IMG/VR virus record: IMGVR_UViG_2913192161_000007
Location: 1 to 33,263 of that record
Strand: one strand, 5' to 3'
DNA: 33,263 nucleotides
Source of the DNA: a virus
Taxonomy: Duplodnaviria; Heunggongvirae; Uroviricota; Caudoviricetes
The notes beneath the pieces were generated by a model. That model was not told the origin of the DNA. It saw nothing but the letters and a program-made list of their open reading frames with translations, and ran no database searches. Made by a program: the position numbers and the translations under genes. This document shows, in pieces, positions 1,094 to 14,048 of the stretch. Each line of letters begins with the position of its first letter. The first letter of the stretch is position 1.

Positions 1094-2164
1094 TTAATGC
1101 GCTGCCGCCAAAGTGCCGCCAACTTCGTTAGGAACTAGAGTTAGTGCTTCAGAAACGTAATCAGCCCATTCCTGCGAAGAAAATGCTTGTAAAGAATAGG
1201 CGTGTTTTCTGAATTTAAACCTCAACTTACCAACATATAAGTAATTATAAATGTTGTCGTAATGTGGTATATCTTCATTATATATCAAACGAATTAGTTT
1301 TCTTGATAGAAGATATGATATTTCTAAAATATCGGCGAATACTTGTTCTTCAAGTGTAAATGTTTTTAATTGATACCCATCATATTTTATCAAACAGTAT
1401 ACATGAGATATGGGGGATGTACATATCAGGTCTAATAACGAGGCTGTATTATATGACAAAGTGTTAAGTCGAATCATGTAACTTAATGGATTATATTCAT
1501 CTATAGAGTGTTGAACCGACAGAGTATTATTAATTGTGTTTAAGTACTCCTTTAATTGCACTAAAAAATCAGGGCTTGCGGTGAAGTTAGATGTGGTCTC
1601 TATAGTTGATTTGTTGTATATTTTTGTATATAAAAGATATGGGTTGGAAATTTTAATTTCATCTGCTGTAAACAAAGTGATATTTGGTTCGCCATTGAAT
1701 TTAATGAGGTTTCCATCTGAGCCTCTCGCGCTTTGAAGATTGTAGGCGAATATTTCCTTTGTTTTCTCAATAAAGTTTTTCTCATGTGCTAAATATCTAT
1801 CGACTGCATTTTTCGTTTCAGCGGTGTTGATCTGAGCTTCGGTTTGTATAGTGCGATGTATATTGTTGACGATCGAAGCCAAAGGAACTGCACTAGCTAG
1901 CAATAGTAGAGGGAATTTGCTTATTTCGTAAAATCTTGAATAGCCATGTGCGGAGAGTACTGGTTCTTTTCCCCACCATGTGAAAAAACCAAAATAGATA
2001 AAGGAAAATAAAGGTGTTAAAACTGAAATCCAAAATAATTTCTGACGAAATAAATTTCTTTTATCAAGCATGTACCATTTTTTTACTATTGTAATAAATA
2101 CTAATAAAACGATTGCTGCAATATAAATCACTGTATAACAAGTATCACTTAACATGATTTTCAC
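1094..2164 (-). CDS. Hypothetical polytopic membrane protein, AT-rich cargo gene (unknown function)
   Basis: 356-aa ORF. GTG at 2162-2164 overlaps the int stop codon (alternative ATG at 2153-2155). Three hydrophobic N-terminal segments (IYIAAIVLLVFITIV, ISVLTPLFSFIYFGFFTWW, FPLLLLASAVPLASIV) then an Asn/Tyr/Ile-rich soluble region. Base composition visibly far more AT-rich than flanking phage genes. Confidence 0.6.
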   Translation of the reverse strand: MKIMLSDTCYTVIYIAAIVLLVFITIVKKWYMLDKRNLFRQKLFWISVLTPLFSFIYFGFFTWWGKEPVLSAHGYSRFYEISKFPLLLLASAVPLASIVNNIHRTIQTEAQINTAETKNAVDRYLAHEKNFIEKTKEIFAYNLQSARGSDGNLIKFNGEPNITLFTADEIKISNPYLLYTKIYNKSTIETTSNFTASPDFLVQLKEYLNTINNTLSVQHSIDEYNPLSYMIRLNTLSYNTASLLDLICTSPISHVYCLIKYDGYQLKTFTLEEQVFADILEISYLLSRKLIRLIYNEDIPHYDNIYNYLYVGKLRFKFRKHAYSLQAFSSQEWADYVSEALTLVPNEVGGTLAAAH

Positions 2165-3177
2165 TCAATATAATTTAAAGGATTCTTAGTTACTGCATCT
2201 TCTAAGTGTTCTGGTGAAAAATGAGAATAGATCATCGTCATTTTTATATCGGCATGGCCCAGAATATCGCGCAGCACCAGTATGTTTCCGCCATTCATCA
2301 TAAAATGGCTGGCGAATGTATGACGTAGCACGTGAGTGCATTGGCCCTCTGGCAGCTCGATGCCAGCTCGCTTTACTGCTCGTTCAAAGGCTTTTCTGCA
2401 CGGGGTGAATAGCTTCCCTCTGTTCTTGGGGAGTTCGTCATACAGATCTTGAGATATCGGCACGGTGCGGTTTTTCTTACCCTTCGTCTTGGTATAAGTG
2501 ATGCGGTATTTAGATAACTGATGGCCCTGCAGGTTTTCGGCTTCACTCCAGCGTGCGCCGGTGGCCAGGCATATTTTTGCAATCAAAAGCAGACTGGGGT
2601 TTTGAGAATCAGCGCAGGCATCTAGCAGACGTTTAATTTCTTCCGAGGTCAGGAACGCCAGTTCCCCCTCAGCGATTTTAAATGTTGGCAGCCCGGCGAG
2701 AGGATTTGGTGCTGACCAGTGGCCTAGTTTTTTCAATGTGCCGAAAACCGATGATAGGTTACGTTGCTCAAGATTCACCGTGCGTGGTTTTACTGGCGAC
2801 ATTAGTGTGCCGTCTTCGTTACGAACGTCACCTTTTAACCGTGCTTCGCGGTATTTCGTAAAGTCACCGGCTGTCAGTTCTGAGGCGATGGGGTCGCCTA
2901 GACCATTACAGATAATTCTAAGTTTCGCCATGAGGCGCTTGGGGTCTGCGAGTGTCTGACCATACAGGGAATACCAAAGCTCAATTAATTCTGATAGGCG
3001 TCGCCGATCATCCTTTTCACCCAACCACGGTTTTTTATTCACTTCTTCCATTGTGAAGCTTTCAAAAGCAATGGCTTCGCCTTTCGTAGCAAATTGCTTA
3101 CGCACGCGCTTACCATTGCGTCCATTGGGATAGCACTCACACAACCATTTTCCGTTCGGCTGTTTTCTGATGGTCAT
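2161..3177 (-). CDS. int: Phage integrase, tyrosine recombinase (P2/186 Int family)
   Basis: 338 aa. Catalytic-type motifs ARWSE, HVLRHTF and MTMIYSHF near the C-terminus. Adjacent to attL, downstream of cI on the same strand. Confidence 0.9.
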   Translation of the reverse strand: MTIRKQPNGKWLCECYPNGRNGKRVRKQFATKGEAIAFESFTMEEVNKKPWLGEKDDRRRLSELIELWYSLYGQTLADPKRLMAKLRIICNGLGDPIASELTAGDFTKYREARLKGDVRNEDGTLMSPVKPRTVNLEQRNLSSVFGTLKKLGHWSAPNPLAGLPTFKIAEGELAFLTSEEIKRLLDACADSQNPSLLLIAKICLATGARWSEAENLQGHQLSKYRITYTKTKGKKNRTVPISQDLYDELPKNRGKLFTPCRKAFERAVKRAGIELPEGQCTHVLRHTFASHFMMNGGNILVLRDILGHADIKMTMIYSHFSPEHLEDAVTKNPLNYIE

Positions 3178-3178
3178 A

Positions 3179-3811
3179 TCAAAGGCTCTTAATGATTTTC
3201 AGTGCGCGGCCTACTACCTCAATGTCATCTAGGCCACACTCAAACGATGAATCATCCTGATGTACTACTAATTTGTTTCCCGGGAGTCGAGTCAATTTAA
3301 CAATGCTTTTTATCCCGTCGATATCGACTAACCACATACCATTTACTGGTGGTGTTTGGTTGCGATCTATTAAATAAGAATCACCAGAAGTAGTCACCAG
3401 CAGTAGGTTGCTTGAGTCTGAGGGGAGTATGCTGCTATCAATGATTGCTTTTCCAGCATCGATCAATAAACCACCGTTGAGAGTCGCCTTGTCAATTTCA
3501 GGAGATACTAGTTCAGAAAGAGGTATAACCTTGCTGGAGTTCACGGAATTGATATTTTTTTGGGGTTCAATGTTTGAACCTGGCTCCCCCTGTCCGGTGG
3601 TTAGCCACAGTAAAGAAACTCCTGTTTCCAAGGCGCACTGAATCACCCACTCTGCAGGAAAACTATCTCTTAAGTATCTGTTTGCCATGGTGCTTTTTGA
3701 TGCGCCTAAGTGATCGCAAAGTTGCTGTCTGGACTTGAAATCATAGGCTGCCATTAGTCTATGGATAGCCTCTCTTCCCCCTGTATTCTCTCCAACCTTT
3801 ACATGTATCAT
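3179..3811 (-). CDS. cI: CI-type immunity repressor (N-terminal HTH, C-terminal domain with S24-peptidase-like motifs)
   Basis: 210 aa. HTH-like SRQQLCDHLGASKSTMANRY. C-terminal SGDSY followed by IKSIVKLTRLPGNKLVV resembles the Ser/Lys region of LexA-type folds. Divergent from apl/cII and tightly coupled to int. Confidence 0.75.
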   Translation of the reverse strand: MIHVKVGENTGGREAIHRLMAAYDFKSRQQLCDHLGASKSTMANRYLRDSFPAEWVIQCALETGVSLLWLTTGQGEPGSNIEPQKNINSVNSSKVIPLSELVSPEIDKATLNGGLLIDAGKAIIDSSILPSDSSNLLLVTTSGDSYLIDRNQTPPVNGMWLVDIDGIKSIVKLTRLPGNKLVVHQDDSSFECGLDDIEVVGRALKIIKSL

Positions 3812-5779: not shown

Positions 5780-6006
5780 TGGCTGATGCAATGGATCTCG
5801 TACAGCAGCGCGTTGAAGAAGAACGCCAGCGCCATATCCGTGCTGCCCGTGCCAAAACGCCGGGCGTGTCCCGCGTGCTTTGCGTTGAGTGTGAAGCGCC
5901 AATTCCGCCAGCACGCCGCCGTGCCATTCCGGGTGTGCAGCTTTGCATTACCTGTCAGGAAATCGCAGAGCTGAAAGGCAAACATTACAACGGAGGTGCT
6001 GTATGA
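5779..6006 (+). CDS. TraR/DksA-family C4 zinc-finger protein
   Basis: 75 aa with CVECEAPIPPARRRAIPGVQLCITCQ (C-x2-C ... C-x2-C), the TraR-type signature common in phage early operons. Confidence 0.75.
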   Translation: MADAMDLVQQRVEEERQRHIRAARAKTPGVSRVLCVECEAPIPPARRRAIPGVQLCITCQEIAELKGKHYNGGAV

Positions 6007-6860
6007 GCACCATCCTGAAATGGGCGGGAAATAAAACCGCCATAATGTCCGAACTGAAAAAGCATCTTCCTGCTGGCCCGCGACTGGTTGAACCTTTCGC
6101 GGGTTCCTGTGCAGTGATGATGGAGACGGATTACCCCAGCTATCTTGTTGCGGATATTAATCCTGATTTAATCAACCTCTATAAAAAGGTTGCTGCTGAT
6201 TGTGAGGCGTTTATATCTCGTGCCAGAGCTTTATTTGAGGAAGCAAACAGGGAGGTGGCTTATTACAACATAAGGCAGGAGTTTAATTACTCCACTGAAA
6301 TTACTGATTTCATGAAAGCGGTATATTTCCTGTATCTCAATCGTCACGGTTACCGTGGTTTATGTCGCTATAACAAGAGCGGGCATTTCAACATTCCCTA
6401 CGGTAATTATAAAAATCCGTATTTCCCTGAAAAAGAAATTCGCGCATTTGCAGAAAAGGCCCAGCGAGCAACGTTTATCTGCGCCAGCTTTGATGAAACG
6501 CTGGCGATGTTGAAGGCGGGGGATGTGGTGTATTGCGATCCGCCGTATGACGGTACGTTTTCCGGCTATCACACTGACGGCTTCACTGAAGATGACCAGT
6601 ATCACCTGGCATCTGTTCTTGAACATCGGTCATCAGAAGGACATCCGGTCATTGTTTCTAACAGTGACACATCCCTGATCCGTTCGCTGTATCGCAATTT
6701 TACTCACCACTACATCAAGGCAAAACGCAGCATCGGTGTGGCAGCTGGCGAGGGTAAATCAGCAACAGAAATCATTGCTGTTTCCGGGCCGCGCTGCTGG
6801 GTGGGATTTGATTATTCGCGTGGCGTGGACAGTTCTGCCGTGTACGGAGTACGTGCATGA
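6003..6860 (+). CDS. dam: DNA adenine methyltransferase (Dam-like, GATC class)
   Basis: N-terminal LKWAGNK, FAGSCAV and catalytic DPPY, with overall similarity to E. coli Dam. ATG 6003 with RBS ggaggtg; overlaps both neighbours by 4 nt. Confidence 0.85.
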
Positions 6861-9271
6861 GTCATGCCGATATGAACAACTGCTGCGGCTTTAACGAGGC
6901 TGCCGCAGCATTCTCATGGAACAGCCCGAAAAAGGCCATTAACCCTTATCTGGACCCGGCGGAAGTTGCGCCGGTTTCTGCGCTTTCAAACCTGATCACT
7001 CTGTACGCTGCCGATAACGAGCAGGAACAACTGCGCCGCGAGGCACTGAGTGATCAGGTCTGGGAGCGTTATTTCTTTAATGAATCCCGTGATCCTGTCC
7101 AGCGCGAAATGGAGCAGGATAAGCTAATTAGCCGGGCAAAGCTGGCGCATGAGCAGCAGCGTTTTAATCCGGACATGGTCATTCTGGCGGATGTCAACGC
7201 TCAGCCTTCCCATATCAGCAAGCCGCTGATGCAACGTATTAAATACTTCAGCAGCCTGGGCAGGCCAAAGGCTTATTCCCGCTATTTACGTGAGACGATT
7301 AAGCCATGTCTGGAACGACTGGAGCATGTACGCGACAGTCAGCTATCTGCATCTTTTCGCTTTATGGCAAGCCATGAAGGGCTGGACGGCCTGCTGATCC
7401 TGCCTGAAATGAGTCAGGATCAGGTGAAACGCCTGTCCACCCTGGTAGCTGCGCATATGAGTATGTGCCTTGATGCAGCTTGTGGTGATTTGTATGCCAC
7501 CGATGACGTTAAGCCAGAAGAAATCCGCAAGACATGGGAAAAGGTGGCAGCGGAAACCCTGCGTCTGGATGTCATCCCACCTGCGTTTGAGCAACTCCGT
7601 CGGAAAAGAAACCGCCGTAAACCCGTGCCCTATGAACTCATTCCGGGTTCGCTGGCGCGTATGTTGTGCGCCGACTGGTGGTATCGGAAATTATGGAAGA
7701 TGCGTTGCGAATGGCGGGAAGAGCAGTTGCGCGCTGTTTGCCTGGTCAGCAAAAAAGCATCTCCTTATGTCAGCTATGAAGCCGTGATGCATAAACGTGA
7801 GCAGCGCCGTAAGTCGCTGGAGTTTTTCCGTTCTCATGAACTGGTGAACGAAGACGGCGACACGCTGGACATGGAGGATGTGGTAAACGCCAGCAGCAGC
7901 AACCCTGCGCATCGCCGCAATGAGATGATGGCCTGTGTTAAAGGTCTGGAGCTTATCGCGGAAATGCGCGGTGACTGCGCCGTTTTCTACACTATCACCT
8001 GTCCGTCGCGTTTCCATTCCACGCTAAATAACGGCAGACCAAACCCGACCTGGACAAACGCGACGGTAAGACAAAGCAGCGATTATCTGGTCGGCATGTT
8101 TGCTGCATTTCGTAAGGCGATGCACAAAGCCGGGTTGCGCTGGTATGGCGTGCGGGTGGCTGAGCCGCATCATGATGGCACAGTTCACTGGCACCTGTTG
8201 TGTTTCATGCGCAAAAAAGACCGCCGTGCCATCACTGCATTACTGCGTAAGTTTGCCATCCGTGAAGACCGCGAGGAGCTGGGCAATAACACTGGGCCGC
8301 GCTTTAAGTCTGAGTTGATTAACCCGCGCAAAGGAACGCCGACAAGCTACATCGCGAAATATATCAGTAAGAACATTGACGGTCGTGGTCTGGCTGGCGA
8401 GATCAGCAAGGAAACGGGTAAATCTCTGCGTGATAACGCTGAATACGTGAATGCCTGGGCGTCTCTGCATCGTGTTCAGCAATTCCGCTTCTTTGGTATT
8501 CCGGGGCGTCAGGCTTACCGTGAACTTCGCTTGCTGGCTGGTCAGGCGGCAAGGCAACAGGGTGACAAAAAAGCAGGTGCGCCGGTACTGGATAACCCGC
8601 GTCTTGATGCCATTCTGGCTGCTGCTGATGCTGGTTGTTTTGCCACCTACATCATGAAGCAGGGCGGCGTACTGGTACCCCGTAAATATCACCTCATCAG
8701 AACCGCTTATGAAATCAACGAAGAGCCGACCGCCTATGGCGATCACGGCATTCGTATTTATGGCATCTGGTCACCCATTGCAGAGGGCAAGATCTGCACT
8801 CATGCAGTGAAGTGGAAAATGGTTCGTAAAGCCGTTGACGTTCAGGAGGCGGCAGCCGACCAGGGCGCTTGCGCCCCTTGGACTCGTGGCAATAACTGTC
8901 CCCTTGCTGAAAATTTGAACCAACCGGAGAAAGACAAATCAGCTGATGGGGATACCAGAACGGATATCACCCGCATGGATGACAAAGAGTTGCACGAATA
9001 CCTGCACAGTATGAGCAAAAAAGAGCGCCGGGAACTGGTAGCAAGGTTACGCCTGGTTAAACCGAAACGGCGTAAAGACTACAAACAGCGAATTACAGAC
9101 CATCAGCGACAACAGCTCGTCTATGAGCTGAATTCCAGAGGATTTGATGGCAGCGAGAAAGAGGTCGATTTGCTCCTTCGCGGTGGCAGTATTCCGTCAG
9201 GAGCAGGCCTGCGTATCTTCTATCGGAACCAGCGTTTGCAGGAAGATGATAAGTGGCGGAACCTGTATTAA
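6857..9271 (+). CDS. A: Replication initiation protein (P2 A-like rolling-circle nickase)
   Basis: 804 aa. HxH-type motif [10 protein letters not shown] and active-site Tyr motif YIAKYISK. Position after the early operon. Confidence 0.85.
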
Positions 9272-9364
9272 TTACGCTGATTAACAATTAATGCTCTAAA
9301 TAATAAGCACAGGATAAATCCTATTGATTTTAAAAAAACTTTTTACTTTAACGATATTATTATG

Positions 9365-9384
9365 TACTGTATGTAAAACCAGTG
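9365..9384. promoter_or_regulatory. LexA box (SOS operator) upstream of the Tum-like operon
   Basis: TACTGTATGTAAAACCAGTG: CTGT-N8-CCAG, one mismatch to CTGT-N8-ACAG, in AT-rich promoter-like sequence 46 bp upstream of the first ORF. Confidence 0.6.
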
Positions 9385-9429
9385 GTTAAGTATACAGTAT
9401 TATCTACCCACAGTGAGATAGGAGGGAAG

Positions 9430-9618
9430 ATGCAGGATTATTTTTTAGAGTCGTTGAAACTCCAGCGAATTGATTTTTTTCTTAAGCTTGTAGTGGCCAG
9501 TGAATGTAGTGATCAGGAAAAAGAGCTTGCGCTGCTTTGGATTTCAGAACTGACGGATGAACTCATGGCAAAAATCAGAACCCACGAATATAACCGCTCA
9601 ATGGATGTTGTTAACTGA
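9430..9618 (+). CDS. Small hypothetical protein, first cistron of the SOS-controlled Tum-like operon
   Basis: 62 aa from ATG 9430 with RBS ggaggg (ORF track begins at GTG 9382, inside the LexA box). Followed 10 nt later by the DinI-like gene. Confidence 0.45.
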   Translation: MQDYFLESLKLQRIDFFLKLVVASECSDQEKELALLWISELTDELMAKIRTHEYNRSMDVVN

Positions 9619-9628
9619 GGGGTAATTT

Positions 9629-9862
9629 ATGCGCATTGAAATAATGATCGATAAAGAGCAAAAAATTAGCCAGTCTACCCTGGACGCCCTTGAATCCGAG
9701 CTTTACCGCAATCTGCGCCCCCTGTATCCCAAAACGGTAATTCGCATCCGCAAAGGTAGCTCTAACGGTGTGGAACTGACCGGACTGAAACTGGACGAAG
9801 AAAAAAAACAAGTGATGAAAATTATGCAGCAGGTATGGGAAGACGACAGCTGGCTGCATTAA
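9629..9862 (+). CDS. DinI-family protein (Tum-like antirepressor candidate)
   Basis: 77 aa, MRIEIMIDKEQKISQSTLDALESELYRNL...VWEDDSWLH, the DinI-type pattern. RBS gagggg. Located after the replication gene as tum is in 186. Confidence 0.75.
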   Translation: MRIEIMIDKEQKISQSTLDALESELYRNLRPLYPKTVIRIRKGSSNGVELTGLKLDEEKKQVMKIMQQVWEDDSWLH

Positions 9863-10063
9863 GAAACGTTGCTGGCGTCTGAACTTGCTTCTGGCGTCAG
9901 CAAGGTTGAACAATGAGCTGTACAAGGCGTTAGCCGCCCTCAATGCGGACAGATAACGAAAAGGCCGGAGAGGATTCAATTTCGTGAAGGGTTAGGCGTG
10001 GGAAGCCCCTAGCAAGCGGCAGGCTTTTTGCTATGATGGTTTCTTTTTCTCAGGAAAAAGGCA

Positions 10064-10723
10064 ATGGACATCATTCAGTTACTTGAAGTACTGAAGCCCG
10101 CTAAAGACGTGGTAACGGTACAAATTGCGAGTCAAAAGGAGCCACTGACTCCATGGTTTGACCTCGCAAAAGCGGTTCTGCCAGCTGCGGCAACTGCTTT
10201 TGTTGCATGGCGGGCCATGAATCGTTCACACCGCCAATTTGAAATCACCTCAAAACGGCAAGCAGCTGAATTCGACAAAAATATTGCGCAGCAAACCAAA
10301 GCACTGAAAGTGCAAACTCAAATTGCTACGGAAATTGAGATAAAAAAAGAAGAATGTCGGAACGTGCGGGAATCATGTGCCCAGTATCTATCCTTAGCGC
10401 TTGAATCTAATAGGTACAAAGACGATTATAACCTTGCAATGGATTACATTCTTAAGGGTAATAACGATTTTATTGATAAGAGAAATGTAGCACATGAAAG
10501 CTACATTACATCATCGCATCGTACCCTTTCAGCAAGGTTGTTATTGATGACATACCTTAATCCTGAAACCTCACCTTCCTTCTTTGAATCAATCAAGAAT
10601 GTCGATGCATTGCTGATTTCGTCAGGGCCAAACTTCGGTGGTGCCGTAGGTAAATGCCTTGCGGAATGCCGGATGTACATAGAGAAAAAACAAGCCGAAA
10701 TATCTACAATCTCAACAGAATAA
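10064..10723 (+). CDS. Hypothetical membrane-anchored protein, cargo gene at the tin/old-equivalent locus
   Basis: 219 aa, RBS aggaaaaagg. One hydrophobic segment (LAKAVLPAAATAFVAWRAM) followed by a charged, helical-looking region. No motif recognised. Confidence 0.6.
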   Translation: MDIIQLLEVLKPAKDVVTVQIASQKEPLTPWFDLAKAVLPAAATAFVAWRAMNRSHRQFEITSKRQAAEFDKNIAQQTKALKVQTQIATEIEIKKEECRNVRESCAQYLSLALESNRYKDDYNLAMDYILKGNNDFIDKRNVAHESYITSSHRTLSARLLLMTYLNPETSPSFFESIKNVDALLISSGPNFGGAVGKCLAECRMYIEKKQAEISTISTE

Positions 10724-10994
10724 ACGCTTACTCTGGATGGACATCATCGTCGGACAAACTGGCAAAGGGTTCACCCCTTCTCATTGCCATGATGTAGTAA
10801 TACCACCGCCCGGCGATGTTGGGCGTTCAAACTCTAACCAAAAACAGTCATCATAAGCCCTTCCAAACCAATAGCCGTCGCTATATTGCTACGCCCGCTG
10901 AACAAATAATTATTCCCTGTTTGATTAAAGGCGCACAGGTGCATGTCTATGCCGCATGAATCCGCATGATCGTTTGAGGATCTTTTTAGCTCAG

Positions 10995-11018
10995 GCCCGC
11001 CAGGAATGGCGGGCTTTT
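10995..11018 (+). terminator. Rho-independent terminator
   Basis: Perfect 7-bp stem GCCCGCC / GGCGGGC, loop AGGAAT, then TTTT. Confidence 0.6.
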
Positions 11019-11063
11019 GCTTATGTCATGCATGTGCATGAAAACCACTGCATAAAGCGGGCA

Positions 11064-11082
11064 GGCGTGGCGGGGATACGAG
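11064..11082. other. Putative cos cohesive-end site
   Basis: GGCGTGGCGGGGATACGAG; the first 13 nt match the 19-nt cohesive end I recall for 186/P2 (GGCG[T/A]GGCGGGGAAAGCA..). Lies between the cargo gene and the portal gene, where cos sits in P2-like phages. Confidence 0.45.
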
Positions 11083-11241
11083 CGCGCGCAACGGGGTAAA
11101 ATGGCCAAAATCCGGCACAGCCTCTGGCCCGCTGGCGGCCTCATTTAGTGGAGGGGGGAGATGTCAGGGCAAAAAGAAACGCCCCGCAGAATGCTGCTGA
11201 GGCGTTGTGAGAGTTGGTCGGTTATTGATGTTATGAGTATG

Positions 11242-12285
11242 TCAGCCTCGTTTGCCCTTAAGTCCTAAATCATAAGCTTCAAAACGGATCACCTCTTTAT
11301 CCAGCCAGCCATTCAGCTCCTGCAGTCGCTTTTGCAGTGGCATCAGTTCATTGCGGACGAAGACACGGCTCGCTTTTTCCACATCACCAAAGCCGCCAGT
11401 GTTGTTGGGAATGATGCCCATCATTTGCGGCGGTACGCGGTGAGCCGCCATCATGTCATCGCGGCTGACGTTCTTGATGTTCAGAAATTCATCCTTCGCC
11501 GCGACTTCCGACAACGGGATAATCTGAATGCCATCTTTTTTGCCGTTAGGCGAGTACATAAACAGGTTGCGGAAGTTGCCCGGTCCTTTAGCACTTTTCA
11601 TTGCCTTGCGGATGTTATTCACATCCTCCTGGTTCTGCGCGGCGTCGGTCATGTACATGATGAAGCCTGCATGACTGCCGTTAATGTAATACTTGCGGCG
11701 GAACAGCGTGGCAGACTCGTTGAGCAGGGCGGATGGAATAGCAGAAAGATAGCCGGGCAGGCCGTAGATCTCCTGATTAATGTCAGGTTCCATCAGATGA
11801 AAAATGCTGCCTTTCGTGAACTGATACGGTTGTGTGGTCATGCCATATTGCACAAACCAGTATGTTTCAAGGTCAAGCCCGCGCCGGGTGTATTTTGCCA
11901 GTGCAGGCTCCAGTGAAATAACTTCACCGAAACGGTTCGTGCGTTTCTCCAGGTAGGCGTTACCAAAAACCAGATAGTCCTGCACAAAACGGGTAAATGC
12001 CTGCTGGCTGAGAAGGCGATGTGGAATATAGGTACTGCTGATAATGTCACGCTTAACACTGATCGGGGAGCTGTGGTGCACGGCGGCGCGGAAGGTGCGC
12101 GCCAGTCCGTCAAAGCTGACGGGCGGCTCATACCAGCGATCCATCTGTACGCATTCCACATAGTCCAGCAGTTCGCGGCGGTCCAGTACAGGAATGGGAT
12201 CACCAAAGCTGAAAGCCTCCGCAACGGATTTTTTAGTTTCTTCTGCAGTTACGGTTTCGCCTGGCGCGATATGTTCTTTCATCAA
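11242..12285 (-). CDS. Q: Portal protein (P2 gpQ-like)
   Basis: 347 aa, immediately downstream of and overlapping the terminase large subunit. Size and position match P2 Q. Confidence 0.85.
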   Translation of the reverse strand: MMKEHIAPGETVTAEETKKSVAEAFSFGDPIPVLDRRELLDYVECVQMDRWYEPPVSFDGLARTFRAAVHHSSPISVKRDIISSTYIPHRLLSQQAFTRFVQDYLVFGNAYLEKRTNRFGEVISLEPALAKYTRRGLDLETYWFVQYGMTTQPYQFTKGSIFHLMEPDINQEIYGLPGYLSAIPSALLNESATLFRRKYYINGSHAGFIMYMTDAAQNQEDVNNIRKAMKSAKGPGNFRNLFMYSPNGKKDGIQIIPLSEVAAKDEFLNIKNVSRDDMMAAHRVPPQMMGIIPNNTGGFGDVEKASRVFVRNELMPLQKRLQELNGWLDKEVIRFEAYDLGLKGKRG

Positions 12286-14048
12286 AAAATCTCCACAATA
12301 TTGCTGGTATTGGCGGACTCGCCCTGCAGCGGTTCGTTAAACAGTGCGTGCATTGTTGCCCAGGCCAGATCGGCATGGCTGGCTTCTTCGCTGCGGCTGG
12401 CTTCATAGGTCGGGCGGTTGCCGCTGGCGGTGGTGGCGCGACGGATTGCCATAAATGACTGCGCAATGTCGGTGTGTCCGGCGTCAAACTCCAGACGACG
12501 GTGGCTGATAATGTCGTAGGCCTTGAGTACCAGGGCGTTTTTAACGTTGGGGTTGTAGACAAACTCCCGGACGGCAGGAAAGAACGCTTTCACGTTCTCG
12601 TAAACCCCGTGACCGACACCTGTCGAGTCGATGCCGATATAGGTCACGTTGTACTGTTCGGTCAGTTTTTTGATGGCGTCCGCCTGGGCGCGAAAGTCCA
12701 TCCCGCGCCACTGGTGACGCTCAAGAATGCGGAACTTACCACCCGGCACGGCTGGCGGTGCCACCACCACGCATCCGGCGCTGTCGCCGTTTTGCGTACC
12801 TTTTGCCGGGTCATAACCGATCCACACTTCGCGCCAGCCAAATGGGCGCAGGGCCAGTGCATGAAAGTCGGTCCAGACTTCCCAGCTGTCCACCATGCAT
12901 GCCTGCAGCTCGCTGAGCGGGAACACGGACGCGAGATCGTCCACAAACTCGCACATCAGCAGGTTCTGGTATTCGTCCGGGCTGTACTCCATGCGTAGCT
13001 GGTCGAGGTCGAACAGGTTACAGCCGCCGCGCACCGCATCTTCCACGGTGACTATCTGGCGGTACTGCCCGTCTGCGCACAGCAGGCCGGGGGCCAGATT
13101 GCTGTGGGACAGGTCGATGTCCACCTTGTCGGCTTTGTTGCGCCCACGGTTGAACAGCGCACCGGACCAGAACGGATAAGCACTATGGGTCAGGCTGGAT
13201 GGCGTGGAAAAATAGGTCTGTCGCCATTTCTTGTGAATAGCCATACCGGAAGCCACTTTACGCAGCTCCTGGAATTTCGGGATCCAGAAATATTCATCCA
13301 GATACAGGTTACCGTGATAACTCTGGGCTGTGCGGGCATTGGTGCCGAGGAAGTAAAGCGTGGCCCCGTTAGGAAGCACCATCGGATCGCCTTTCAGCTC
13401 CACCTCCACTTCTTTGGCAAAGTCGATGATGTACTGTTTAAAGACGTGGGCCTGTGCCTTACTGGCGGAAAGGAAAATCTGGTTACGTCCGGTCAGCAGG
13501 GCGTCAATCAGGGCTTCACGGGCAAAGTAAAAGGTCGCGCCGATCTGGCGTGACTTCAGCAGGTTGCGGATGCGGTTGGTTTTTCCGGCTTCCCACCAGT
13601 GGCGCTGGTAGTTGAACATGGAGGAATGGAAGATTTCTTCCAGCTTCTCAATCTGTTCATCGGTGAAAACATTCTTTTCCGGCTGACGGCGTGGGCCTTT
13701 GTTGCGGTTGGCGATGTTAGGGTTTAAGTCGGCTTCGTTGCCGCCATTGTTAAACTTGCCGATCCGCGCGTGGCGCTCCGACTGGCGCGCCAGCAGGTCA
13801 ATCTCTTTGAAATCTTTCCCTTCTTTGTGCTCCTTCATAATGAGCTGGCAGTAGCGTGCGGCGGTGGTGAGCTGCATCTGATCCAGCGGCCCATAGTCAC
13901 CCCACTTGTCGCGTTTTTTCCAGCTGTGAACGGTTGCAACTTTCTCGCCCAGCATTTCAGCAATGCGGGCGACGCGGTATCCCTGAAAGTACAGCAGCAT
14001 GGCCTGCCGACGGGGATCGAGATCTGCGGGTGTCAGTGTGGTGTTCAT
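12282..14048 (-). CDS. P: Terminase large (ATPase) subunit (P2 gpP-like)
   Basis: 588 aa, divergent from the O-N-M-L operon. Size and position match P2 P. Confidence 0.85.
   Translation of the reverse strand: MNTTLTPADLDPRRQAMLLYFQGYRVARIAEMLGEKVATVHSWKKRDKWGDYGPLDQMQLTTAARYCQLIMKEHKEGKDFKEIDLLARQSERHARIGKFNNGGNEADLNPNIANRNKGPRRQPEKNVFTDEQIEKLEEIFHSSMFNYQRHWWEAGKTNRIRNLLKSRQIGATFYFAREALIDALLTGRNQIFLSASKAQAHVFKQYIIDFAKEVEVELKGDPMVLPNGATLYFLGTNARTAQSYHGNLYLDEYFWIPKFQELRKVASGMAIHKKWRQTYFSTPSSLTHSAYPFWSGALFNRGRNKADKVDIDLSHSNLAPGLLCADGQYRQIVTVEDAVRGGCNLFDLDQLRMEYSPDEYQNLLMCEFVDDLASVFPLSELQACMVDSWEVWTDFHALALRPFGWREVWIGYDPAKGTQNGDSAGCVVVAPPAVPGGKFRILERHQWRGMDFRAQADAIKKLTEQYNVTYIGIDSTGVGHGVYENVKAFFPAVREFVYNPNVKNALVLKAYDIISHRRLEFDAGHTDIAQSFMAIRRATTASGNRPTYEASRSEEASHADLAWATMHALFNEPLQGESANTSNIVEIF

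Follow-up and report, generated by a model that had tools for sequence, protein, structure and literature searches.

An open reading frame (ORF) at positions 10064-10723 (+ strand) of the IMG/VR virus record IMGVR_UViG_2913192161_000007, a stretch of 33,263 nucleotides analysed in full and referred to here as the window, encodes a 219-aa protein identical to WP_130258415.1 from Escherichia sp. E10V10. The window carries a P2-like prophage of the 186/Fels-2 type, and the ORF is a real gene under purifying selection which represents variable cargo, being present or absent among otherwise collinear phages. It is a self-contained moron, made up of a predicted promoter, the gene and, in most copies, a terminator, and moves among the accessory slots of unrelated temperate phages; what is new is that one and the same gene recurs as a solitary cassette, namely, in P2-like phages, between Q and the holin gene of lambdoid phages, in an ERF-type phage and at bare chromosomal sites. 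The product represents a protein family that is new and uncharacterised; the locus itself is of a known type, in which specialists expect unknown cargo. As to function, the balance of evidence tilts slightly towards an anti-phage role of some kind, be it abortive infection or superinfection exclusion.

The limits of the insert were obtained by blastn comparison of positions 9300-11300 with Fels-2, Klebsiella phage ST15-OXA48phi14.1 and E. coli phage vB_EcoM-813R9. In these phages, the left flank is kept up to 9860-9934 and the right flank starts again at 10908-10941, with 82-91% identity across the flanks, and the intervening insert is swapped in all three. Among 5426 complete E. coli genomes, the insert was found in three. 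These results agree with the original prediction that the ORF fills a variable slot: related phages do not keep the gene at this position, and its product shows no homology to a characterised protein. The GC content of the insert is below that of the flanking genes (0.38-0.39 at 10250-10700, in the 3′ half, versus ~0.53 in the flanks and 0.51-0.55 in gpA and the portal gene), and the spacer at 10724-10945 has no match in phage records.

The ORF is located between the replication gene A and the portal gene Q, next to cos, that is, in the cos-proximal gpA-gpQ hotspot described for P2-like phages (Rousset et al., 2022, PMC9122126; Moura de Sousa et al., 2026, PMC13586616), which matches the earlier assignment of the slot between the replication/Tum module and cos to the tin/old hotspot of P2. 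The P2 cohesive-end core GGCG(A/T)GGCGGGGA has a single occurrence in the window, at 11064-11076, and corresponds to the first 13 nt of P2 cosL, one degenerate position aside. The spacing between cos and Q is 178 nt in the window and 186 nt (from cosL position 1) in P2, and the ORF lies ~340 nt upstream of cos. The features that place the ORF within the prophage are as follows:

2161-3177 (−): integrase
3179-3811 (−): CI repressor
5943-6860: Dam-type methylase
6857-9271: replication protein gpA, assigned on the basis of PF05840
9382-9618: small protein of phrog_698
9629-9862: DinI/TumB-like protein
9935-10938 (+; approximate, ~1 kb): variable cargo insert of the first hotspot slot, from the DinI/Tum-like gene to the conserved cos flank, delimited by blastn
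10064-10723 (+): the 219-aa ORF, with an ATG start
11064-11082 (+): core of the cos cohesive ends, GGCGTGGCGGGGA and a further 6 nt, with portal gene Q ending 178 nt away
11242-12285 (−): portal Q (PF04860, on the orthologue)
12282-14048 (−): terminase P

In related phages, the same or the adjoining slot carries bona fide defence cargo. The first slot is occupied by STM2726 in Fels-2, by three small genes in the Klebsiella phage, which also encodes a SEFIR protein just past cos, and by a Hypoth_Ymh/HEPN protein matching PD-Lambda-3_B in vB_EcoM-813R9. A second slot, between cos and portal gene Q, is empty in the window (11092-11241) and holds AbiU in Fels-2, a type IX retron (HEPN_IX, HTH_IX, RT_IX) in E. 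coli PSJ-12, AbiLi plus PDC-M38B in Enterobacter vonholyi and HEC-06/GmrSD in an IMG/VR contig (second-slot cargo at L001:4585-6282, L012:6219-8622, L004:9176-10884 and L020:8140-9921). The two slots vary independently of each other.

Two further ORFs of the window deserve mention. A 355-aa ORF at 1094-2164 (−), directly past the integrase gene on the att side, matches no PADLOC family and, in Pfam, nothing above threshold (DUF3810 at 19.5 bits versus a cut-off of 28). P2-like phages are reported to have a minor cargo slot between int and att, and this ORF may be its occupant here. A 122-aa ORF with a TTG start at 9611-9979 (−), antisense to the DinI-like gene and the adjacent intergenic region, is most likely a chance ORF.

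The genomic contexts of the family are diverse. Besides the window, P2-like phages encoding gpA carry the gene at four loci (L004, L012, L020 and L021), a P2-like phage with a Toprim primase carries it at L013, and a degraded P2 remnant contains a family member beside a TIR gene (L007-9). It is further found in an ERF/Mu-F-type phage (L014/L022) and at ~20 lambdoid loci (L023-L034, L036-L040), where it is inserted between the Q antiterminator gene, represented by three Pfam Q families, and the lysis cassette, either directly before the holin gene or separated from it by one to three accessory genes, including a DNA methylase in most loci. Other copies reside in a phage-free chromosomal position beside cusA (L010), in an uncharacterised island (L017) and at a distance of 1.3 kb from the genes of a phiX-like microvirus (L015). 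The cassette never includes a second gene, and no neighbour recurs across these contexts, so that the gene works alone.

Two of these loci hold additional elements. The L015 microvirus set (L015:290-5714), comprising the full Bullavirinae-type complement of genes A, H, G, F, J, D, C and B, is embedded in a 116-kb enterobacterial metagenome contig, where it adjoins a LysR gene and a fimbrial operon; the family member P0013 is encoded at L015:7001-7669, on the opposite strand. Given that only 318 bp of this set match phiX174, with 77% identity, a chimera with a spike-in is unlikely, and the set may represent an integrated phiX-like prophage. In the Yersinia lambdoid prophage L036, a pair of genes for a Ser/Thr protein kinase and a PP2C phosphatase (9136-10628) is found between the lysis cassette and the terminase gene and looks like a further accessory insertion.

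What travels with the gene can be judged from an alignment of the 83 nt ending at the ATG from 19 loci of P2-like, lambdoid, ERF-type and chromosomal contexts. The element TGnTATGAT has a fixed position 26-31 nt ahead of the ATG; within the −10 hexamer, no locus departs from the T, the A and the final T, and the G of the upstream TG hardly varies. It is followed by the pyrimidine tract TTTCTTTTT and then by AGGA. Nucleotide homology to the unrelated island L017 starts at 10004. The conservation of this element across unrelated flanks suggests that it is an extended −10 promoter and a part of the mobile unit; transcription would start near 10044-10045, and the gene is probably expressed from the prophage. 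The original prediction paired TATGAT with a −35 box, TAGCAA; the former is conserved, but the latter matches the consensus at three of six positions, falls below the threshold of the promoter scanner, is not conserved and lacks credibility. The ribosome-binding site proposed at the same time is upheld, AGGA at −12 to −9 being kept as AGG family-wide. The regulatory elements of the window copy are:

10025-10037 (+): predicted cassette promoter, a T-run followed by the extended −10 element TGcTATGAT (TG at 10029-10030, TATGAT at 10032-10037)
10040-10063 (+): 5′ leader, with the conserved pyrimidine tract TTTCTTTTTC and the Shine-Dalgarno motif AGGA (10052-10055)
10993-11022 (+): intrinsic terminator (stem 10993-11016) with a 10-bp stem containing seven GC pairs, a GAAT loop and a T-run

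In the lambdoid copies, a strong intrinsic terminator is located directly upstream, and its U-tract also provides the T-run and the TG of the promoter (L026:6944-6972; L023-L034). Its stems vary between loci by compensatory changes (CCTCGC/GCGGGG, CCCGC/GCGGG and CCTCGC/GTGAGG; z −3.3 to −4.5). This terminator, which may be the tR′ of the phage, insulates the gene from phage lytic transcription. The corresponding hairpin has decayed in the window copy and is not significant (z 0.11), and nothing terminator-like was found in the interval between the DinI gene and the ORF, so that read-through from the SOS-controlled module is possible in the window. Downstream of the gene, a hairpin closely follows the stop codon in lambdoid, chromosomal and other copies; in the window copy, no significant structure is predicted for positions 10724-10800 (z 0.16). 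The clean terminator originally attributed to the gene (at 10995-11018) does exist, with its stem at 10993-11016, ~270 nt after the ORF stop (dG −23.8 kcal/mol, z −5.0). However, it is contained in a block (10908/10939-11091) that is 89-91% conserved in the Fels-2, Klebsiella and E. coli phages and hence belongs to the phage's own cos flank rather than to the cassette. It would end hotspot transcripts just before cos and is the terminator on which the window copy depends.

Comparison with an Enterobacter copy of 86% identity yielded an overall ratio of nonsynonymous to synonymous substitution rates (dN/dS) of 0.13, with regional values of 0.02 for residues 1-60, ~0.10 for residues 61-110 and 161-219, and 0.20 for residues 111-160. 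The gene had originally been placed at 10010-10723; the 219-aa product stands, but the start codon is the ATG at 10064, and the stretch from 10010 includes the promoter region. In a few E. coli assemblies, the gene is split into fragments of ~94 and ~110 aa (P0063, P0064 and P0069, in the cluster of the ORF product), which suggests occasional pseudogenisation.

The family is small. It comprises 27 clusters among 5.8 billion proteins, and an exhaustive profile search of 1.84 billion representatives recovered 34, all stand-alone proteins of ~200-240 aa without fusions, except for a 633-aa match (P0055, E 7e-4), a repetitive helical protein that was regarded as spurious. A second profile search added only 'hypothetical' proteins from Yersinia, which form a Yersinia branch, and every member of the 90% cluster of the ORF product is likewise annotated as 'hypothetical', as is the family throughout. 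Named hosts are Escherichia, Enterobacter, Klebsiella, Buttiauxella and Yersinia, the other members coming from metagenome or IMG/VR contigs, and the gene is present in a few hundred assemblies of E. coli, Enterobacter, Klebsiella and Yersinia.

Profile and structure-based searches bear out the original statement that the protein could not be placed in any known family. The ORF product has no match in Pfam, PHROGs, NCBIfam or PADLOC, and searches of 39 family members against Pfam, PHROGs and PADLOC returned only scattered sub-threshold matches (Gliadin, TPR_TTI1_C, DUF7935, SLATT_1/5, gop, Mem_02 and phrog_19998), none of which recurs enough to count. Among PDB sequences, no profile match had an E value below 1.4; tblastn found no counterpart in 50,697 phage records, and Foldseek against PDB and BFVD returned nothing significant (none at E < 0.05). 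A literature search with six family-member accessions retrieved no paper.

The anatomy of the protein was deduced from family conservation and from an AlphaFold2 model built with 26 homologues (mean predicted local distance difference test score (pLDDT) 76.6; >90 for most of residues 90-219), and can be divided as follows:

10064-10129 (+): codons 1-22, family signature MDIIQLLEVLKPAKDVVTVQIA, conserved more strongly than any other part and with a predicted periplasmic location
10163-10219 (+): codons 34-52, predicted transmembrane helix LAKAVLPAAATAFVAWRAM
10250-10393 (+): codons 63-110, stalk and first half of bundle helix 1
10394-10633 (+): codons 111-190, end of helix 1, helix 2, helix 3 and the loop between helices 3 and 4 (H3-H4 loop)

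Residues 1-20 (MDIIQLLEVLKPAKDVVTVQ) are near-invariant and residues 41-110 are conserved; column entropy over residues 1-10 is 0.74 bits, and D2, I3, E8, L10, P12 and T18 are each at least 92% conserved (n = 49). The single N-terminal hydrophobic segment noted originally is present, but begins ~30 residues into the protein rather than at its very N-terminus; in relatives, its hydrophobicity is clearly that of a membrane-spanning helix. In the 15-residue flanks of the transmembrane helix of 39 members, Lys and Arg total 125 after the helix versus 53 before it, and Asp and Glu total 93 before versus 40 after. This charge bias predicts an N-out/C-in orientation with a cytoplasmic bundle, and the product thus appears to be a bitopic inner-membrane protein. 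In the family member P0022, the linker just after the transmembrane helix contains an 11-residue tandem duplication (SESNAKRQSEE-F / QSNAKRQSEE-F, residues ~58-69), indicating that linker length is tolerant to change.

The long helical region that had been anticipated corresponds to modelled helices spanning residues 63-216 (63-130, 134-162, 171-186 and 191-216), which together form a predicted four-helix bundle. The stalk has one conserved face (Q66, F70, Q77, L81, A88/T89, K95, C98, R102 and C105) with a periodicity of 3.5-3.6 residues, Q77 being conserved in 100%, R102 in 96%, T89 in 94% and K95 in 92% of the sequences. Entropy rises to 2.9-3.2 bits at residues 111-160 and 181-190, compared to 2.0-2.5 bits at 161-180; in the model, these hypervariable segments, the region of the turn between helices 1 and 2 and the H3-H4 loop, would form the membrane-distal tip of the bundle. 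Four cysteines are common (98, 105, 198 and 202). However, two disulfides or a Cys4 metal site as an obligatory feature can be ruled out, because C105 alone is missing from 10 of 49 sequences and the cysteines per sequence show no bias to even totals, statistics that agree with a cytoplasmic domain without disulfides. Co-loss of residues 98/202 and 105/198 is marginal (Fisher P ~0.05, uncorrected for phylogeny).

These features can be combined into an explanation whereby the prophage protects its host against other phages through a single-protein, abortive-infection-like system. Taken as a whole, we consider this explanation, the best-fitting of those weighed here, a serious candidate that falls somewhat short of being probable. 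It is favoured because the gene resides in the hotspot next to cos, with defence cargo in the same or adjoining slots of relatives; because it is autonomous, has a conserved promoter, is under purifying selection and encodes a conserved module opposed to a variable tip, with the topology predicted above; and because there is a precedent in the prophage-encoded abortive infection (Abi) proteins PdpSau and AbiP, each with a single transmembrane helix (PMC10127798). In the scheme we envisage, some 30 near-invariant residues would face the periplasm, followed by the transmembrane helix and a cytoplasmic stalk whose one strictly conserved, partly polar face leads into the four-helix bundle. The hypervariable tip would bind a phage-derived protein or complex; binding would alter the packing of stalk, transmembrane helix and N-terminal module in a homo-oligomer, and the resulting membrane perturbation, by ion leak or depolarisation, would stop the infection. 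This specific sensor-effector mechanism is, at present, rather doubtful. Should it nonetheless hold, the family would exemplify a new single-gene anti-phage architecture, namely, a homo-oligomeric gated ion-leak module composed of an invariant periplasmic peptide, a transmembrane helix and a polar-core stalk, controlled by a hypervariable cytoplasmic tip through direct recognition of a phage protein, and packaged as a portable promoter-gene unit, with a terminator fused to its upstream end in lambdoid copies, that moves between P2-like, lambdoid and other temperate phages of Enterobacterales; that all these attributes will prove correct together is unlikely.

Several observations weigh against protection of this kind. 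No homology ties the family to defence, and PADLOC yielded nothing consistent for the 39 members. Model confidence is low for residues 1-60, and the segment at 34-52 is Ala-rich and weakly hydrophobic in the window copy (Kyte-Doolittle mean 1.24, compared to a family mean of 1.78 and values of up to 2.9). The dN/dS of 0.2 at the tip points to relaxed rather than positive selection, and an insert found in three of thousands of E. coli genomes is rare. The hotspot is also not reserved for defence: its non-defence cargo includes cdt toxins and partition systems, the latter in roughly one P2-like phage out of four, and only three of the eight new P2 hotspot systems tested protected against the phage panel (PMC9122126).

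An alternative form of protection would be superinfection exclusion at the step of DNA entry, such that the infected cells survive: the transmembrane helix and the periplasmic N-terminal peptide would occupy a conserved host inner-membrane component or block the ejection conduit. A predicted inner-membrane protein with a prophage promoter would suit this role, all the more so as its most constrained part, the short predicted periplasmic segment together with the transmembrane helix, would fit binding to a conserved host target, and P22 SieA provides a precedent (PMC10883804). Known exclusion proteins, however, act on relatives of their carrier, whereas this family is distributed over myovirus-type P2-like, lambdoid and ERF-type phages and phage-free sites. 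Furthermore, two-thirds of the protein, including the hypervariable part, is predicted to be cytoplasmic and would be left unexplained by a periplasmic block, and no similarity to the SieA, Imm or gp15-type families was found in Pfam or PHROGs. We regard exclusion as an unlikely explanation.

The gene might, instead, be a lysogenic-conversion gene unrelated to phages, with the bundle modulating the host envelope or signalling (a membrane sensor, a transporter or a stress pathway) to the benefit of the lysogen. The hotspot indeed carries non-defence morons, partition systems and cdt among them, and the lambdoid Q-holin slot carries stx. Stable lone chromosomal copies exist in Enterobacter, where P0026 occurs in 83 assembly-collection blocks and most of the 24 contigs examined share one common chromosomal neighbourhood. 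The best structural matches are to sensor bundles of chemoreceptors and histidine kinases, and a redox or metal site could be built from C98 and C202, two conserved cysteines that each belong to an E-C-R-like motif. Against this, the fold match is generic, Foldseek having returned nothing significant, no co-localised host pathway recurs among the contexts, and the fast turnover, rarity and hypervariable surface are more typical of conflict genes, leaving conversion a doubtful alternative. Least likely, and indeed very improbable, is a role in the carrier phage's own cycle, in lysis timing (antiholin-like), packaging or replication: although ~20 lambdoid loci place this predicted membrane protein on the same strand between Q and the lysis cassette, directly or one to three genes before the holin, and the window copy lies close to cos (~340 nt), the gene is lacking in almost every close relative of the window phage and hence dispensable, is distant from the lysis genes in P2-like phages, exists as a phage-free chromosomal copy (L010) and keeps its own promoter regardless of phage type, and the Q-holin interval is a classic moron slot, with a DNA methylase or lipase beside the gene.

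If active against phages, the gene would be a compact defence or exclusion determinant, ~0.75 kb including the promoter, to which no known system is related. Domain swaps would readily take apart such a protein, in which a conserved membrane module is joined to a variable tip. If not defensive, it would still be an unannotated lysogenic-conversion membrane protein maintained by purifying selection. Its presence, with the promoter, in both the P2 gpA-Q and the lambdoid Q-holin slots is a clean example of cargo-gene transfer between phage lineages.

Among proteins of known fold, the closest likeness is to the sensor four-helix bundles of chemoreceptors and histidine kinases (PcaY, Tsr/Tar, TorS, NarX and QseE), with which the model shares the up-down topology. 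However, identity is 5-12%, none of the 39 members matches Pfam 4HB_MCP, and the generic helical proteins talin and catenin score nearly as well. Moreover, the sensor bundles are periplasmic, lie between two transmembrane helices and are followed by a signalling module, whereas the ORF product has one transmembrane helix and ends with its bundle, for which a cytoplasmic location is predicted. The SLATT proteins, conflict effectors with two transmembrane helices, were matched by three of the 39 members at sub-threshold level (E 0.007-0.013; 15 bits versus a cut-off of 29.5); these matches span the transmembrane helix and the next helix, whereas the family has a single transmembrane helix.

HK97 gp15 and T4 Imm are superinfection exclusion membrane proteins. 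Like these and SieA, the ORF product is a small, predicted inner-membrane protein which would be expressed from the prophage under its own promoter and act alone, but it has one hydrophobic segment in place of a multi-pass arrangement, no Pfam or PHROG match and carriers that are not tied to one phage type. P22 SieA itself, expressed by the prophage from its own promoter, resides in the inner membrane, prevents the injection of DNA and has three predicted transmembrane segments and little soluble domain (PMC10883804). Closer in layout are PdpSau of an S. aureus prophage and the lactococcal AbiP, single-gene Abi proteins with one N-terminal transmembrane helix and a cytoplasmic domain, an arrangement also predicted for the ORF product; PdpSau is a prophage accessory gene linked to the holin/lysin region, and cells that carry it show a changed membrane potential and permeability upon infection (PMC10127798). 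The cytoplasmic domain of PdpSau and AbiP is, however, positively charged, OB-fold-like and nucleic-acid-binding, as opposed to an all-helical four-helix bundle; their transmembrane helix is at residues 5-27 with the N-terminus inside, whereas the ORF product has a conserved N-terminal tail of 30 residues predicted to be outside; and no sequence similarity was found, Pfam, PHROGs and PADLOC giving no related matches.

With P2 tin and old and the other cargo of this hotspot, the gene shares the slot after the replication gene and the DinI/Tum module, beside cos and before portal gene Q. Its product is a small membrane protein, not a nuclease or ATPase, and has no sequence or fold relation to Tin, Old or the PADLOC models. 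As for its mobility, the cassette resembles the morons of temperate phages. Morons are units of promoter, gene and terminator, as defined for HK97 and HK022. Like them, the gene is inserted between conserved phage genes, has a GC content below that of its flanks, possesses its own conserved promoter and is found in several phage types; a terminator of its own follows the gene in most copies, though not in the window, and a further one lies upstream in the lambdoid copies. It differs from them in that the promoter of the lambdoid copies is fused to the U-tract of the preceding terminator and in that the insulation of the window copy from the DinI transcript has been lost.

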